From the NCBI RefSeq assembly GCF_055900595.2, contig NZ_CM148325.1: a stretch of 64,000 bases of DNA. The stretch is one strand, 5' to 3'. How positions within the stretch are numbered: position 1 is the first letter of the stretch; the number at the start of each line of letters is the position of its first letter. Made by a program: the position numbers and the translations under genes. Of the stretch, positions 6,245 to 23,789 are shown one piece after another. A model generated the notes under the pieces. It made no database searches, was not told the DNA's origin, and worked only from the letters and a program-made list of their open reading frames with translations.

Positions 6245-6754
6245 TTATTTCTTGATGCGAATAACCGGAGTTTCACCCACAGTCACGCTACCGGACAGTT
6301 TGATCAGTTCTTTGATTTCGTCCATGTTGGAGATAACAACCGGAGTCAGGGTAGACTTGGCTTTCTCTTCCAGCAGCGGCAGATCGAATTCAATCACAGT
6401 ATCGCCAACTTTCACGCGCTGACCTTCTTCAGCAATACGCTTGAAGCCTTCGCCTTTCAGTTCAACAGTGTCGATACCGAAGTGAACGAACAACTCAACG
6501 CCGCTATCAGATTCGATAGAGAACGCGTGGTTGGTTTCAAAGATTTTACCAATGGTGCCGTCTACAGGCGCGACCATTTTGTTACCAGTTGGTTTGATAG
6601 CAATACCATCACCAACGATTTTTTCCGCAAAAACGACATCCGGCACGTCTTCGATATTGACGATCTCGCCAGAGAGCGGAGCAATGATCTCAATAGTTCC
6701 GGTATCCTTCTTGTCGTCGGAAACCAGAGATTTCAGTTTATCGAACAAACCCAT
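6245..6754 (-). CDS. crr: PTS glucose-specific EIIA component (Crr, EIIA-Glc)
   Basis: 169 aa, exact recognisable EIIA-Glc sequence ([11 protein letters not shown]...); downstream of ptsI. Confidence 0.97.
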
Positions 6755-20123: not shown

Positions 20124-21008
20124 ATGGAACGCGTATATAGAACAGATCTTAAGTTGCTCCGTTATTTTCTTGCCGTAGCGGAAGAGTTGCATTTTGGTCG
20201 CGCAGCAGCGCGTTTAAATATGTCTCAGCCTCCGCTCAGTATTCATATTAAAGAGCTGGAAAATCAACTCGGCACGCAGCTTTTTATTCGCCATTCGCGC
20301 AGCGTCGTACTGACACACGCGGGCAAAATCTTGATGGAAGAATCGCGTCGATTGCTGGTGAATGCAAATAATATATTGGCTCGGGTTGAACAAATAGGTC
20401 GGGGAGAAGCAGGGCGGATTGAACTCGGGGTTGTGGGAACGGCAATGTGGGGACGGATGCGCCCGGTTATGCGGCGATTCCTTAGAGAAAATCCTAACGT
20501 TGAAGTTCTGTTTCGCGAAAAGATGCCCGCGATGCAAATGGCCTTGCTGGAACGCCGCGAACTTGATGCCGGGATCTGGCGAATGGCGACAGAACCACCG
20601 ACTGGTTTTACCAGCTTACGGTTGCATGAATCGGCGTTTCTGGTGGCGATGCCTGAAGAGCATCATCTCTCATCATTTTCCACCGTCCCGCTGGAAGCGC
20701 TACGTGACGAGTATTTCGTTACAATGCCGCCCGTGTACACTGACTGGGATTTTTTGCAGCGAGTTTGCCAGCAGGTGGGATTTTCACCGGTTGTTATTCG
20801 CGAAGTTAATGAACCGCAAACGGTACTCGCCATGGTCAGTATGGGTATTGGTATCACATTGATAGCGGACAGCTACGCGCAGATGAACTGGCCCGGTGTC
20901 ATATTCCGTCCGCTCAAAGAACGCATCCCGGCAGACTTATATATTGTTTATGAAACGCAGCAGGTGACGCCCGCGCTGGTTAAACTGCTGGCGGCGTTGG
21001 CGCAGTAG
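20124..21008 (+). CDS. xapR: LysR-family activator XapR (start trimmed to MERVYR)
   Basis: LysR HTH (LKLLRYFLAVAEELHFGRAAARLNMSQPPLSIHIKELE); 294 aa from trimmed start. Confidence 0.9.
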   Translation: MERVYRTDLKLLRYFLAVAEELHFGRAAARLNMSQPPLSIHIKELENQLGTQLFIRHSRSVVLTHAGKILMEESRRLLVNANNILARVEQIGRGEAGRIELGVVGTAMWGRMRPVMRRFLRENPNVEVLFREKMPAMQMALLERRELDAGIWRMATEPPTGFTSLRLHESAFLVAMPEEHHLSSFSTVPLEALRDEYFVTMPPVYTDWDFLQRVCQQVGFSPVVIREVNEPQTVLAMVSMGIGITLIADSYAQMNWPGVIFRPLKERIPADLYIVYETQQVTPALVKLLAALAQ

Positions 21009-21078
21009 ATGAGAGGCACGGGAACTGCCGGACATAGTTGGTCTGATAAGCGAAGCGCATCAGGCAATTTCGCAAATT

Positions 21079-21291
21079 GCAGATAGCAAAAAAGCGCCTT
21101 TAGGGCGCTTTTTTACATTGGTGGGTCGTGCAGGATGACTCGCTTCGCTCGCCCTTCGGGCCGTCGCCGCGAGCGGCTCCGTTGTTTCGCTGCGCTCAAC
21201 TCGAACCTGCTGCAGGTTCGAATCTTTGAGTATCGCAGATAGCAAAAAAGCGCCTTTAGGGCGCTTTTTTACATTGGTGGGTCGTGCAGGA
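21079..21291. repeat. 57-bp direct repeat (two copies, 21079-21135 and 21235-21291) comprising the lysV terminator plus the 3'-terminal 17 nt of tRNA-Lys
   Basis: gcagatagcaaaaaagcgcctttagggcgcttttttacattggtgggtcgtgcagga occurs twice 156 bp apart; second copy continues into intact lysV. Confidence 0.7.
21243..21269 (-). terminator. Rho-independent terminator of the valU-valX-valY-lysV tRNA operon
   Basis: On minus strand: stem agcgcc/ggcgct followed by TTTTTT, immediately 3' of lysV CCA end. Confidence 0.55.
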
Positions 21292-21349
21292 TTCGAACCT
21301 GCGACCAATTGATTAAAAGTCAACTGCTCTACCAACTGAGCTAACGACC
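21274..21349 (-). tRNA. lysV: tRNA-Lys (anticodon UUU)
   Basis: Reverse complement reads GGGTCGTTAGCTCAGTTGGTAGAGCAGTTGACTTTTAATCAATTGGTCGCAGGTTCGAATCCTGCACGACCCACCA. Confidence 0.95.
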
Positions 21350-21353
21350 CGAA

Positions 21354-21429
21354 GTGGTGGGTGATGACGGGATCGAACCGCCGACCCCCTCCTTGTAAGG
21401 GAGGTGCTCTCCCAGCTGAGCTAATCACC
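21354..21429 (-). tRNA. valY: tRNA-Val (anticodon UAC)
   Basis: Reverse complement reads GGGTGATTAGCTCAGCTGGGAGAGCACCTCCCTTACAAGGAGGGGGTCGGCGGTTCGATCCCGTCATCACCCACCA. Confidence 0.95.
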
Positions 21430-21475
21430 CACTTCGGTACTTCACATTTTTACAAGAAATCTAGCTGGCGAGAAA

Positions 21476-21551
21476 GTGGTGGGTGATGACGGGATCGAAC
21501 CGCCGACCCCCTCCTTGTAAGGGAGGTGCTCTCCCAGCTGAGCTAATCACC
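21476..21551 (-). tRNA. valX: tRNA-Val (anticodon UAC)
   Basis: Identical 76-nt copy of the tRNA-Val sequence. Confidence 0.95.
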
Positions 21552-21596
21552 CACTTCTCAATTTCTTGCTACACGGCGGAGACTACATAAAGTAGT

Positions 21597-21672
21597 TGGT
21601 GGGTGATGACGGGATCGAACCGCCGACCCCCTCCTTGTAAGGGAGGTGCTCTCCCAGCTGAGCTAATCACCC
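21597..21672 (-). tRNA. valU: tRNA-Val (anticodon UAC)
   Basis: Identical 76-nt copy; promoter-proximal gene of the operon. Confidence 0.95.
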
Positions 21673-21689
21673 CCGCTGTGTGGAGTCGC

Positions 21690-21717
21690 ATTATAGGGAG
21701 AGTTCAAAATGAGTCAA
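21690..21717 (-). promoter_or_regulatory. Near-consensus sigma70 promoter of the valU tRNA operon
   Basis: Minus strand reads TTGACT-16 nt-TATAAT with about 8 nt to the valU 5' end and an AT-rich upstream region. Confidence 0.55.
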
Positions 21718-21930
21718 CGCATTTTCTAAAGAAATTGTTCGTTCGTCGTAAATTTAAGCAAGATGATCGCAAAACAGACCGTGTTGCGCAATTTGTCAAC
21801 GAAAACAATAATGCGTAAGGTTGCAACCCGAACTACATTGAGGAATCAGGCGGGAGTGATAGAATATCGCCCACTCAATTTTTCCAGGATTTGCCGGTTG
21901 TCGGCATCTTTCTAAACGTAAGGCCATTTC

Positions 21931-23346
21931 ATGAAAATCAAAACTCGCTTCGCGCCAAGCCCAACAGGCTATCTGCACGTTGGCGGCGCGCGTACTGCTC
22001 TTTACTCCTGGCTTTTTGCACGTAACCACGGCGGTGAGTTCGTGCTGCGTATTGAAGACACCGATCTTGAGCGTTCCACGCCGGAAGCTATCGAAGCCAT
22101 TATGGATGGTATGAACTGGCTGAGCCTGGAGTGGGATGAAGGTCCGTACTTCCAGACCAAACGTTTTGATCGCTACAACGCGGTGATCGATCAGATGCTG
22201 GAAGAGGGCACTGCCTATAAATGCTACTGCTCCAAAGAGCGTCTGGAAGCGCTGCGTGAAGAGCAAATGGCAAAAGGTGAGAAACCACGTTATGACGGTC
22301 GCTGCCGCCACAGTCATGAGCATCACGCTGATGATGAGCCGTGTGTCGTACGTTTTGCTAACCCGCAGGAAGGTTCTGTTGTTTTTGACGATCAGATCCG
22401 TGGTCCGATCGAGTTCAGCAACCAGGAGCTGGATGATCTGATTATCCGCCGTACCGATGGTTCCCCAACCTATAACTTCTGTGTGGTTGTCGATGACTGG
22501 GATATGGAAATCACCCACGTTATACGTGGCGAAGACCATATCAACAACACACCGCGCCAGATTAACATTCTGAAAGCGCTGAAAGCACCGGTACCGGTTT
22601 ACGCGCACGTTTCTATGATCAACGGCGATGACGGTAAAAAACTGTCCAAACGACACGGGGCGGTCAGCGTCATGCAGTATCGTGACGACGGTTATCTGCC
22701 AGAAGCATTGCTGAACTATCTGGTGCGTCTGGGCTGGTCCCACGGCGATCAGGAAATCTTCACTCGTGAAGAGATGATCAAATACTTCACTCTGAATGCC
22801 GTCAGCAAATCTGCCAGTGCGTTCAACACCGACAAGCTGCTGTGGCTGAACCATCACTACATTAACGCGTTGCCGCCGGAGTATGTTGCTACTCATTTAC
22901 AGTGGCACATTGAGCAGGAAAATATCGATACCCGTAACGGCCCGCAGCTGGCTGATCTGGTGAAACTGCTGGGCGAACGCTGCAAGACGCTGAAAGAGAT
23001 GGCACAGAGCTGCCGTTATTTCTACGAAGATTTTGCTGAGTTCGATGCTGACGCCGCGAAAAAACATCTGCGTCCGGTTGCGCGTCAGCCGCTGGAAGTG
23101 GTTCGTGACAAACTGACTGCGATTACTGACTGGACCGCTGAAAACGTTCATCACGCTATTCAGGCGACGGCGGATGAGCTGGAAGTGGGTATGGGTAAAG
23201 TTGGTATGCCGCTGCGTGTCGCCGTAACCGGTGCGGGGCAGTCTCCGGCGCTGGATGTTACCGTTCACGCAATCGGTAAGACCCGCAGTATCGAGCGTAT
23301 CAACAAAGCGCTGGCTTTTATTGCTGAACGCGAAAATCAGCAGTAA
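21931..23346 (+). CDS. gltX: Glutamyl-tRNA synthetase
   Basis: 471 aa; class I HIGH motif ([15 protein letters not shown]) and KMSKS-like KLSKR; divergent from tRNA operon. Confidence 0.97.
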
Positions 23347-23365
23347 TTAGCGCATAAAAGATAAA

Positions 23366-23394
23366 CGGCAGGAGAGATCCCCCTGCCGTTTTTT
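23366..23394. terminator. Bidirectional terminator between convergent gltX and yfeD
   Basis: Stem cggcagg/cctgccg followed by T6 on plus strand and a T-rich run on minus strand. Confidence 0.5.
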
Positions 23395-23396
23395 AT

Positions 23397-23789
23397 TTAT
23401 TCTGATTCATCTATGTCGAGACGAGCAAGGAAATGACGAATTCCTTCACGTGACAAAAATTGCGCAACTTTTTCCTGCTCACTGTGAGTCATGTTGTCTA
23501 TTGCGCTGATGATTTGCCGATAAGCGGGAGTGCGAATCCCCGGTGCATATTCGGCAAGCGGTTCTTCGGCTTCCAGAAGCATCGGCGTGTTATGGAAGGC
23601 TGGCGTGTTCTGAATAAACTCGCAAACTTGCGTATCGACCAGAATAAGTCTGGCACGACCGCCTTTCACGCCGGGAAATTTTTCCGTTTTCCAGCCTTTC
23701 TCTCTGATCCAACGGTTAACAGTTTGTTTAGCCACACCGAGGCATTCCGCCAGTTCTTCGGTGGTCATTTTATTGCGTAATCTTTTCAT
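23397..23789 (-). CDS. yfeD: Putative DNA-binding protein YfeD (HTH, DUF1323-like)
   Basis: 130 aa; paralogous to the adjacent yfeC product (shared MT.EELA..G...QT.N.W.R..GW....PGV.GG.AR motif). Confidence 0.85.
   Translation of the reverse strand: MKRLRNKMTTEELAECLGVAKQTVNRWIREKGWKTEKFPGVKGGRARLILVDTQVCEFIQNTPAFHNTPMLLEAEEPLAEYAPGIRTPAYRQIISAIDNMTHSEQEKVAQFLSREGIRHFLARLDIDESE

Follow-up and report, generated by a model that had tools for sequence, protein, structure and literature searches.

The family of repeats treated here was reportedly first seen by Egan & Landy in 1978, behind tyrT. An RNA of this kind, the rtT RNA of tyrT-tyrV, is said to have been the subject of work by Bosl & Kersten in 1991, and the tRNA-linked repeats (TLRs) of E. 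coli K-12 were reportedly catalogued by Rudd in 1999. TLRs are defined by a 3′ end of 18–19 nt that repeats the sequence of the upstream tRNA or rRNA without a mismatch; K-12 has 22 of them, at 10 loci (PMC8144298). RrA, RrB and RrF are TLRs located between the terminators T1 and T2 of rrnA, rrnB and rrnD, and both these rrn members (RrA/B/F) and rtT from tyrT are expressed by terminator read-through; for the TLRs of tRNA operons, no function is known (PMC8144298). Members of the TLR family also gave Northern signals in Actinobacillus (PMC4986893).

Here, we analysed a stretch of 64,000 nucleotides (the window), in which the tRNA-Lys gene lysV is followed by a second copy of its own 3′ end. 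This feature is very probably a lysV-distal member of the RtT/TLR family (Rfam RF00391), built as a 156-bp tandem unit, which would be expressed by read-through. The unit is already known, namely as an annotated member of this family, and represents no new element. For the window itself the assignment is of little import, as the family reportedly goes back to a description from 1978 and its K-12 members to a catalogue of 1999, and this copy is weak and probably dispensable.

The lysV-distal unit in the window

The tRNA operon lies on the minus strand and comprises three tRNA-Val(UAC) genes, its valU-valX-valY part (21597–21672, 21477–21552 and 21355–21430; overall span 21355–21672), which were detected by ARAGORN and with 65.9 bits each by the Rfam tRNA model and agree with the RefSeq annotation of matching genomes, followed by tRNA-Lys(UUU), lysV, as its last gene (21275–21350; ARAGORN, Rfam tRNA 79.2 bits). 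Just upstream of the first tRNA-Val, a consensus scan located a putative promoter on the same strand (21690–21717; TTGACT, 16 nt, TATAAT; 11/12 match). The genome AST215, which matches a 601-bp query covering 20850–21450 at 100%, shows the gene order ptsI ... xapABR, RtT, lysV-valYXU, gltX, yfeDC, alaXW ... fryC. The sole mobile remnant in AST215 is an IS200/IS605 pseudogene after gltX, which is absent from the window; there, gltX (21931–23346) is directly followed by a yfeD-sized ORF (23397–23789). As the annotation of AST215 contains no recombinase within 14 kb, the original prediction was right in stating that no integrase or mobile gene is adjacent.

An exact block of 58 nt occurs twice, at 21079–21136 (distal) and 21235–21292 (proximal, containing the genuine tRNA-Lys 3′ end), with a start-to-start spacing of 156 bp. 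Thus, the repeat and the spacing given in the original prediction hold, but the block is longer than the 57 bp it named. No such match was obtained in 100 dinucleotide-preserving shuffles of the window (0/100). The repeat search extended each exact copy across one mismatch, to 21076 on the distal and to 21232 on the proximal side, yielding 61-nt copies (21076–21136 and 21232–21292) that are identical at 60/61 positions. Read on the minus strand, each 58-nt copy consists of ATCCTGCACGACCCACCA, ATGT, AAAAAAGCGCCCTAAAGGCGCTTTTTT and GCTATCTGC, i.e., 18 nt of tRNA-Lys 3′ end, 4 nt, a terminator hairpin and 9 nt. ATCCTGCACGACCCACCA represents the last 18 nt of the gene at 21275–21350, one more than the 17 nt previously assigned to the tRNA part, and the two copies remain identical over the 40 nt that follow the tRNA, terminator included.

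The proximal hairpin (AAAAAAGCGCC-CTAAA-GGCGCTTTTTT, 21244–21270) and the distal hairpin of the same sequence (21088–21114) are, judged from sequence and fold, putative intrinsic terminators. The predicted fold reaches -19.1 kcal/mol (z = -6.2), and U6 comes after the proximal stem. With an A-tract on one side and a T-tract on the other, the hairpin looks bidirectional. A consensus terminator scan flagged neither of the two hairpins, probably because the A and T tracts pair with each other and leave no free T-run.

The region between the repeats, together with the distal tail, is matched over the full Rfam model of RF00391 (1–130 of 130) at 21119–21244 on the minus strand, with 51.6 bits compared to a gathering score of 45. 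In RefSeq, an ncRNA termed “RtT sRNA” covers exactly this interval in AST215 (L129, 14270–14395) and occupies the equivalent place in K-12 (L001, 1768–1893). The resemblance to distal repeats of tRNA operons, one of two options raised in the original prediction, is therefore well founded in the RF00391 match, the RefSeq annotation and the published description of the family (PMC8144298). The order on the minus strand is tRNA-Lys, terminator, 95-nt TLR body, second tRNA-Lys 3′ end and second terminator, with 30 nt separating lysV from the start of the unit on the same strand.

The body and the second tail form one RNA module, which corresponds to the 3′ part of tRNA-Lys with a domain placed between T-loop nt 58 and 59. 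Its elements follow each other as a decayed T-arm-like hairpin, the T-stem 5′ strand with UUCGA, the insert of ~64 nt, AU, the T-stem 3′ strand, the acceptor 3′ strand and ACCA. The hairpin, a remnant of the family's 5′ T-arm-like hairpin (CAAAG-ATTCGAA-CCTGC, 21212–21228, minus strand), was recognised when the 5′ arms were compared among 45 related units; its 5′ strand has decayed from GCAGG, and its loop corresponds exactly to the T-loop in reverse complement. The conserved structured insert, as delimited by alignment and covariation, comprises 64 nt (GTTGAGCG…CCCGAAGGG…GCGAGTC, 21137–21200, minus strand) and sits between nt 58 and 59 of the tRNA-Lys-derived frame. The 3′ tail at 21119–21136 on the minus strand duplicates the end of lysV at 18/18 positions (ATCCTGCACGACCCACCA) and contains T-loop nt 59–60, the T-stem 3′ strand, the acceptor 3′ strand, A73 and CCA.

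Between the repeat copies lies a perfect 10-1-10 palindrome, TCGAACCTGC-T-GCAGGTTCGA, which had been predicted at 21200–21220 and does exist, although one base further to the right, at 21201–21221. Chance matches of this kind were absent from 100 shuffles (0/100), and the corresponding RNA hairpin folds with -17.3 kcal/mol. Comparison of its anatomy shows the palindrome to be a junction, at which the 3′ half of the 5′ hairpin (…TTCGAACCTGC) abuts the direct T-stem 5′ strand with T-loop nt 54–58 (GCAGGTTCGA). An origin as crossover product of two body variants in two-copy alleles was considered and dropped as unprovable, because a single T-to-C change explains the palindrome equally well; the informative sites are only ~8 nt apart.

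Regarding its core, the window unit shows T-stem closure, the GAGCG…GCGA hairpin, the P2 hairpin, CCCGAAGGG and GAGTM-AT-CC. In the alignment, all invariant columns are present, the T-stem GCAGG/CCTGC is intact and the P1 pair 13/35 is a compensated U-A. The core motifs are shared by the lysV and tyrT repeats, consistent with one family. Other parts are degraded: the P3 hairpin is reduced to ~2 bp, the covariance-model scan returned non-canonical outer-stem pairs, and a search for a 5′ arm complementary to the tail gave at best 6/12 in the window unit, which equals the shuffled expectation. Across the family, however, only 5/46 units reach 11/12 in this complementarity; intact arms are known from Yersinia and Marinobacterium units. 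With 51.6 bits, compared to 47.6–101 bits for distant relatives, the Rfam score of the unit is near the bottom, and the window copy is a weak, partly decayed family member. A resemblance of the core to a hammerhead, suggested by the motifs GAUGAG, CGAAAC and GUC, was rejected, as a permissive Rfam scan returned no ribozyme match.

Copy number and the wider family

Among E. coli genomes, the lysV locus occurs in alleles with 0, 1 or 2 units, which differ by exactly 156 bp and share the same flanks. At least one unit beside the xapR flank was present in 1,910/5,426 genomes, and the lysV unit was missing in ~55% of an evenly spaced sample of 40 E. coli genomes. Alleles with no copy and with one copy both occur next to a 100%-identical xapR-side flank (H126–H129 vs. 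H110), whereas two-copy alleles are known from examples (L002, L006 and records annotated “RtT sRNA (x2)”). Numbers vary at other loci as well, e.g., three units at tyrT of K-12, a tyrT locus altogether free of repeats in SK1144 (L007) and up to 14 units in Photorhabdus.

Invariance across the Enterobacteriaceae, a point raised along with the original prediction, was not found, because the unit is polymorphic (0, 1 or 2 copies). The 156-bp period, consisting of tail, terminator and body, is a tandem-repeat unit, and the polymorphism is one of tandem copy number and not of integration or excision. Unequal recombination or replication slippage between the direct repeats of 58–61 bp would generate the 0-, 1- and 2-copy alleles. 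The locus neatly illustrates the instability of a small tandem repeat at the end of a tRNA operon; in practice, the variation between 0, 1 and 2 units can confuse assemblies and comparative alignments.

At 120 loci in Gammaproteobacteria, the 3′ tail of the repeat matches the neighbouring tRNA, be it Lys, Tyr, Ser, Arg, Pro or Gln. For a test of this hallmark, 83 first units from other species were compared with their cognate tRNA, and 57/83 agreed at 18/18 and 66/83 at ≥16/18 positions, while the latter level was reached in 18/1660 non-cognate comparisons. Moreover, a core of ~60 nt with strong base-pair covariation is placed between T-loop nt 58 and 59, and the T-stem closes around this insert with compensatory changes. 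In a sample of 47 non-redundant units, 89.1% of the cells were paired, in comparison to 33–43% with slid partners, double changes were seen in 100 vs. 9–28 cells, and the covariation score amounted to 0.272 vs. ≤0.065, a value reached by none of the shuffles (0/500). Cedecea (L087) and Photorhabdus (L051) also have a TLR at the end of the corresponding operon. The Photorhabdus units are full-length tRNA-Lys copies bearing the insert; a fold of such a unit was not better than shuffled sequences (z = -1.07) and returned no clean cloverleaf.

These comparisons lend themselves to a more general, tentative and rather doubtful proposal, according to which RtT/TLR sequences are tRNA genes or remnants thereof with a covarying ~60-nt domain at T-loop 58|59, in other words “T-loop-expanded tRNA-like RNAs” behind cognate tRNAs of at least six isotypes. 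The anatomy on which it draws, i.e., the insert site, the cognate tails and the full-length copies of Photorhabdus, is directly visible: E. coli keeps the 3′ frame only, and Photorhabdus and Xenorhabdus still carry full-length units in arrays of 5–14. To our knowledge, an insertion between nt 58 and 59 leaves the 5-nt T-loop motif intact. The domain might spread by insertion specifically into T-loops, or the universal GGTTCGA/ATCC sequence might serve as a site of recombination. It is a matter of speculation that the RNAs act as decoys or competitors for enzymes of the acceptor/T-arm, such as RNase P, 3′ processing nucleases, the CCA-adding enzyme or anticodon nucleases. A description of the T-loop 58|59 insertion was not found in the searchable literature, which excluded the works of Egan & Landy (1978), Bosl & Kersten (1991) and Rudd (1999). 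For a family that is so far without an assigned function, the cognate tail on six isotypes, the covarying core at T-loop 58|59 and the interrupted tRNA-Lys arrays of Photorhabdus could serve as experimental handles.

Proposed expression and alternative explanations

In analogy to tyrT and the rrn members, the lysV-distal unit would be transcribed solely when RNA polymerase passes the first terminator, and the tRNA 3′-processing machinery would then generate the 3′ end of the unit at the copied tRNA tail. Such read-through may be rare, because a strong hairpin (-19.1 kcal/mol, then U6) precedes the unit.

This strong upstream terminator is also in line with the most serious alternative, which we regard as quite possible though not as the favoured explanation. 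Here, the unit would be a TLR by descent whose copy is no longer expressed or used and which persists as neutral DNA gained and lost by slippage, leaving the duplicated bidirectional terminator between the convergent xapR and lysV operon as the only working part. The decayed 5′ arm and truncated P3, an Rfam score among the lowest measured, and the absence of the unit from ~55% of the 40 sampled genomes and from many genomes with identical flanks all fit an inert relic. Also in favour of a relic, InvenireSRNA gave the TLRs of tRNA operons CsrA-binding probabilities <0.01, and no function is known for them (PMC8144298). However, the bodies of the lysV and lysQ copies still agree at ~99%, the window copy has kept its core helices and invariant motifs intact, and the TLRs of Cedecea and Photorhabdus at the same operon end likewise argue against an inert sequence.

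Clearly less probable is a role as trans-acting or protein-sponging sRNA in the manner of RrA/RrB/RrF, which bind Hfq and CsrA. These belong to the same wider family, and the rrn members arise when transcription passes a first terminator, in an architecture as found at lysV (PMC8144298); conservation and covariation of the core across Gammaproteobacteria also speak for such a role. The lysV copy is, however, dispensable in many strains, and for 19 TLRs of tRNA operons the probability of CsrA binding was <0.01 (PMC8144298).

The original prediction had further proposed the footprint of an old integration or excision. In such a scenario, a phage or island would have integrated in the T-loop or 3′ end of lysV and decayed to ~95 bp, with the duplicated tRNA end as attL/attR. 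Formally, the layout is that of a T-loop-type integration, with an intact tRNA, foreign DNA and a displaced 3′ fragment from the T-loop, and presence of the unit differs among strains; nevertheless, we reject this reading as highly improbable. No phage att match, recombinase or larger element accompanies the unit: a distant-mode BLAST against 50,697 phage records gave four weak partial matches to bacterial contigs or fragments and no att region, the only matches among 72,556 plasmid records were mislabelled chromosomes or chromids, and the genome that is 100% identical over the local 601 bp is free of recombinase genes for 14 kb to either side. Furthermore, strains differ by whole 156-bp units only, including two tandem copies, and never by a larger element, and the repeated block does not stop with the tRNA but continues for a further 40 nt that include the terminator. 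The body itself shows the covariation of a structured RNA and is found behind lysQ, tyrT and tRNA-Ser, -Arg, -Pro and -Gln in many genera, always with the cognate tail. The lysV-distal unit should therefore not be mistaken for an att site or the scar of a genomic island.

Finally, it is hardly to be expected that the unit encodes a small Arg-rich peptide like Tpr, the ORF of the tyrT repeats, for although the whole unit is open in the Tpr frame, with an Arg-rich translation (…SAAKQRSRSRRRPEGRAKRVILHDPP), and the original phenotype of tyrT rtT was re-attributed to a nearby ORF (PMC8144298), the window copy has no ATG in this frame, an ATG-started ORF is present in only 5/45 non-redundant units with many frames interrupted, and the variation tracks base-pairing and not codons.

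Comparison with known systems

As a lysV-distal TLR, the unit in the window has several described counterparts, among them the lysQ TLR at the end of the lysT operon, beside nadA. Both share the arrangement of tRNA-Lys, terminator, body, tail and terminator and the 156-bp period, and they differ by one mismatch in the body (~99% identity). The lysQ TLR occupies another chromosomal locus, and the shared block ends 7 nt earlier there than at lysV, at GCTAT. In the strains inspected, the body at lysQ is of the K-12 type (GGTTTGAG), in which the perfect palindrome of the window is interrupted.

The RtT repeats of tyrT-tyrV (rttR/rtT RNA) likewise fall into RF00391, and they have in common with the lysV unit a 5′ T-arm-like hairpin, NAAGGTTCGA, the core GAGCG…CCCGAAGGG…GAGTA, a cognate CCA tail and the occurrence as tandem units (three in K-12). 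Unlike at lysV, their tail and stems are of the Tyr type, and the period is 178 bp instead of 156 bp. The tyrT units lack an internal terminator hairpin, whereas every lysV unit begins with one; in turn, a tail-complementary 5′ arm (GGGGAAGG) and an ATG-started Tpr ORF are retained in the tyrT units and missing in the lysV unit.

With RrA, RrB and RrF, compared here by their published description, the lysV unit has in common that the final 18 nt of the preceding stable RNA recur ~150 bp away; the rrn members differ by a tail that copies 5S rRNA, by GGA motifs and by binding of Hfq and CsrA (PMC8144298).

The att sites of tRNA genes likewise combine an intact tRNA with a direct copy of its 3′ segment, which begins in the T-loop and lies displaced some way downstream. 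P4-type integrases reportedly cross over in the T-loop of the tRNA, a point attributed to Williams in 2002. In contrast to such sites, the lysV unit comes without integrase, cargo and attP homologue, its repeat passes through the terminator, its copies are tandem and variable in number, and the DNA between its repeats belongs to a conserved family of structured RNAs.

The interrupted tRNA-Lys arrays of Photorhabdus and Xenorhabdus, classified as RtT by Rfam, carry the insert at T-loop 58|59, the core motifs and the tRNA-Lys tail, and in Photorhabdus L051 the array is found at the same operon end, with three tRNA-Val, tRNA-Lys and a divergent Ala-GGC pair nearby. These arrays comprise 5–14 copies with a period of ~175 bp and no internal terminator. 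Their units retain the whole 5′ part of tRNA-Lys, some of them letter-perfect and others with a CUU anticodon or a decayed acceptor strand, whereas in the E. coli unit a hairpin remnant derived from the T-arm replaces this 5′ part of the tRNA.

The repeat unit behind lysV

The tRNA cluster of the window, three tRNA-Val(UAC) genes and then tRNA-Lys(UUU) on the minus strand (21275-21672), is the valU-valX-valY-lysV operon of E. coli, with xapR on one side and gltX together with the alaX/alaW pair on the other. A repeat search returned a 61-nt direct repeat behind lysV (21076-21136 and 21232-21292, identity 60/61, spacing 156), including an exact block of 58 nt (21079-21136 and 21235-21292) that was equalled in none of 100 window shuffles. 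On the operon strand, each copy comprises the last 18 nt of tRNA-Lys, ATGT, the hairpin AAAAAAGCGCC-CTAAA-GGCGCTTTTTT (–19.1 kcal/mol, z = –6.2) and GCTATCTGC. Moreover, a perfect 10-1-10 palindrome lies at 21201-21221 (chance match in 0/100 shuffles). The original prediction had described both the tail duplication and this palindrome and is confirmed with two small corrections: the duplicated tail measures 18 instead of 17 nt, and the palindrome had been placed one base off.

In fact, this feature has been known before and is annotated. RF00391 ("RtT RNA") was returned at 21119-21244 (minus strand) both when 20800-21800 was scanned permissively against Rfam and when the complete window was scanned at the gathering threshold; the match spans the full model and scores 51.6 bits at a gathering score of 45. 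In K-12 ER2796, RefSeq lists an ncRNA "RtT sRNA" in the same place between xapR and tRNA-Lys (1768-1893 of the fetched locus L001), and in strain AST215, which is 100% identical over the 601-bp query (20850-21450), the annotated "RtT sRNA" (L129 14270-14395) corresponds exactly to 21119-21244. On the basis of this match and annotation, the earlier description as a distal repeat of a tRNA operon was right. RF00391 scores of distant relatives range from 47.6 to 101 bits, placing the window copy among the weakest; its low score fits a truncated P3 and a decayed 5′ arm, which pairs with the tail at 6/12 positions, equal to shuffled sequence.

In the literature, these elements are named tRNA-linked repeats (TLRs); they were first described in 1978 behind tyrT, were catalogued by Rudd (1999) as 22 copies at 10 K-12 loci, and are characterized by an 18–19-bp 3′ end that exactly repeats that of the tRNA or rRNA upstream (PMC8144298). 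A role in the stringent response was first claimed for rtT RNA and later re-attributed to a nearby ORF, and TLRs are considered to be without known function (PMC8144298). Other papers likewise treat RtT as a recognised multi-copy family: it is expressed in Actinobacillus (PMC4986893), its gain or loss distinguishes strains of Erwinia pyrifoliae (PMC7542023), and its mode of action is given as unknown.

A mechanical listing of the region also gave two short ORFs on the plus strand, opposite the RtT unit (21128-21242), which would encode 33 aa (GTG start) and 35 aa (ATG start). The interval from the xapR stop codon to the distal terminator contains a single palindromic unit (21040-21073; minus strand GCCTGATGCGCTTCGCTTATCAGACCAAC) that, by the REP consensus, is presumably REP/PU-like; a similar presumed REP is located 3′ of the tyrT repeats in K-12 (about 6395-6440 of the tyrT locus L008).

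Copy-number alleles in E. coli

Among 5,426 complete E. coli genomes, of which 5,425 matched the region, a query of the xapR-side flank and the repeat body reached a coverage of at least 80% in 1,910 (35%). The lysV alleles of the fetched examples differ by exact 156-bp units in tandem on the same flanks, with no unit in IR53017 and O157:H7 NE122 (which also lacks xapABR), one in the window and K-12, and two in MB15 and UPEC85. When 40 evenly spaced ranked records were inspected, 17 carried at least one unit at lysV, 22 none and one was unclear. Since a flank 100% identical to that of the window carries 0-copy as well as 1-copy alleles (match-list rows H126-H129 vs. H110), gain or loss of the unit is recent. 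Copy number could change via unequal recombination or slippage between the 58–61-bp repeats, and the lysV copy in the window is probably dispensable.

The 95-nt body is present in 3,242 genomes, at a median of two and a maximum of five places per genome. The occurrence of about two bodies per E. coli genome is explained by a same-architecture unit behind lysQ, where the lysT operon ends beside nadA (L005:1483-1608, strain 8FA); this unit is Lys-type, about 99% identical to that of the window and features the duplicated tail and terminator as well. The perfect-palindrome body is a minority variant, as just 342 records reach at least 99% identity to the body of the window; in the K-12-type body GGTTTGAG, one palindrome arm position is broken. 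In two 2-copy alleles (L002:1468-1749 and L006:1327-1608), the tandem units differ in the palindrome region, with CCTGCAGCAGGTTTGAG in the proximal and AGCTGCCGCAGGTTCGAG in the distal unit, and the single unit of the window combines the left variant of the former with the right variant of the latter.

In O157:H7 NE122 (L004:1086-1622), xapABR is absent beside lysV, the tRNA operon borders on a FlxA-like gene and yfeR, and there is no RtT unit; other strains without the xapR flank possess a unit (H31-H33). In SK1144 (L007:1801-2020), tyrT and tyrV are 33 bp apart, with fatty-acid and sterol desaturase genes immediately downstream, and lack the RtT repeats, of which K-12 has three there; the tyrT TLR locus is thus polymorphic, too. 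AST215 carries two pseudogenes, an IS200/IS605 tnpA and a TnpB, between gltX and yfeD (L129:16615-18255), an insertion absent from the window (23347-23396).

An alternative option, also raised by the original prediction, was the footprint of an integration at the tRNA 3′ end, and we reject it: the repeated block extends 40 nt past the tRNA, copies vary in number as tandem units, many other tRNAs have the same body attached, and no recombinase gene lies within 14 kb in AST215. The checks proposed with the prediction were negative: a distant-mode BLAST that queried 50,697 phage records with the unit gave four weak partial matches, namely two bacterial contigs (one annotated RtT) and two fragments of 1.6–2 kb, and the full-length matches among 72,556 plasmid records fall on megabase-sized "plasmids", in truth chromosomes or chromids.

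Cognate tails and a covarying core

The operon-strand sequence of the unit is …GCUAUCUGCGAUACU-CAAAG-AUUCGAA-CCUGC-A-GCAGG-UUCGA-(64-nt insert)-AU-CCUGC-ACGACCC-A-CCA, i.e., a T-arm-like hairpin with a decayed 5′ strand, the T-stem 5′ strand of tRNA-Lys and T-loop nt 54–58 precede the insert, and T-loop nt 59–60, the T-stem 3′ strand, the acceptor 3′ strand and ACCA follow it. In related units, the 5′ element mostly takes the form of a hairpin that has the cognate T-stem and an (A)UGAGAA or AUUYGAA loop. In the window, this loop (AUUCGAA) is the exact complement of the T-loop, which is why the 10-1-10 palindrome arises from the 5′ element together with the GCAGGUUCGA next to it on the 3′ side.

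A core-anchored pattern scan of one genome per species gave at least 120 loci with at least 177 units. Hosts among the matches listed are Enterobacterales, Orbales (Gilliamella), Aeromonadales, Alteromonadales (Neiella), Oceanospirillales (Amphritea, Marinobacterium, Alcanivorax), Salinisphaera, and Thioalkalivibrio and other Chromatiales; the few listed from other phyla, without a close upstream same-strand tRNA, are probably chance matches. Among the matches listed, 83 units are located no further than 130 nt behind a tRNA on the same strand, specific for Tyr (26), Lys (25), Ser with four anticodons (19), Arg (6), Pro (5) or Gln (2). The 3′ tail is cognate: at least 16 of its 18 nt agree with the cognate tRNA in 66 of these 83 units (57 with 18/18) vs. 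18 of 1660 non-cognate comparisons. For all three variable nt of the T-stem 5′ strand the counts were 20/83 vs. 28/1660, and for the upstream T-arm-like element (at least 14/17) 30/83 vs. 45/1660. A unit of Yersinia aldovae (L013:2074-2166) combines a tRNA-Tyr tail with a Lys-type T-stem 5′ strand (CGCAGGTTCGAGCCGAGCG, as in Photorhabdus Lys units), which hints that bodies could move between tRNA isotypes, the tail being replaced.

The insert is a structured RNA, framed by these tRNA-derived strands. In an alignment of 47 non-redundant units from ten tRNA species, RNAalifold recovered the T-stem, which encloses the insert and shows compensatory changes (column 2/118: AU 14, CG 12, GC 4), a heavily covarying P2 hairpin (column 44/63: UA 23, CG 19) and an invariant CCC-GAA-GGG hairpin. 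We compared a 20-pair structure (T-stem, P1, P2, CCC/GGG and three P3 pairs) with controls in which partners were slid by 1–3 columns: standard pairs filled 89.1% of cells vs. 33–43%, 100 cells were changed on both sides vs. 9–28, and the covariation score of 0.272, vs. at most 0.065, was reached in 0/500 shuffles. A conserved Tpr-frame ORF was discarded, with an ATG start in just 5/45 units and none in the window copy. The copied tail would be the place where tRNA 3′ processing generates the 3′ end of the RNA.

Interrupted tRNA-Lys copies and related loci

Full-length units account for 41/136 units with an upstream tRNA among the matches listed, all of them from Photorhabdus, Xenorhabdus, Chimaeribacter or an Enterobacteriaceae MAG. 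Behind two normal tRNA-Lys genes, Photorhabdus caribbeanensis carries 14 tandem units of about 175 bp (L010:5460-7870), each of which consists of an entire tRNA-Lys sequence that is split after GGTTCGA, between T-loop nt 58 and 59, by a structured insert of roughly 63 nt. P. asymbiotica has similar arrays of ~175-bp units at L052:8700-10440 (10) and L051:1600-2470 (5). Most array units are missed by ARAGORN, and Rfam scores them as RtT. Leaving the insert aside, two of the five L051 units agree with tRNA-Lys(UUU) in every letter, two have a CUU anticodon, and one keeps UUU with several other changes. Among the array copies, decay affects the acceptor 5′ strand (GGG to AGA, AAA or GAA) and the tail stays cognate, which looks pseudogene-like. 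As the MFE fold of one Photorhabdus unit was no better than shuffled sequence (z = –1.07), we claim no tRNA-like fold for array units. It appears rather unlikely that the whole family is made up of tRNA genes which a conserved RNA domain has expanded at T-loop position 58|59.

With its Val x3, Lys x2, array and divergent Ala-GGC pair, L051 is the positional orthologue of the operon in the window, and in Cedecea (L087) a Lys TLR likewise ends the same Val x3-Lys operon. The tyrT units of K-12 follow the plan of the lysV unit with Tyr-type stems.
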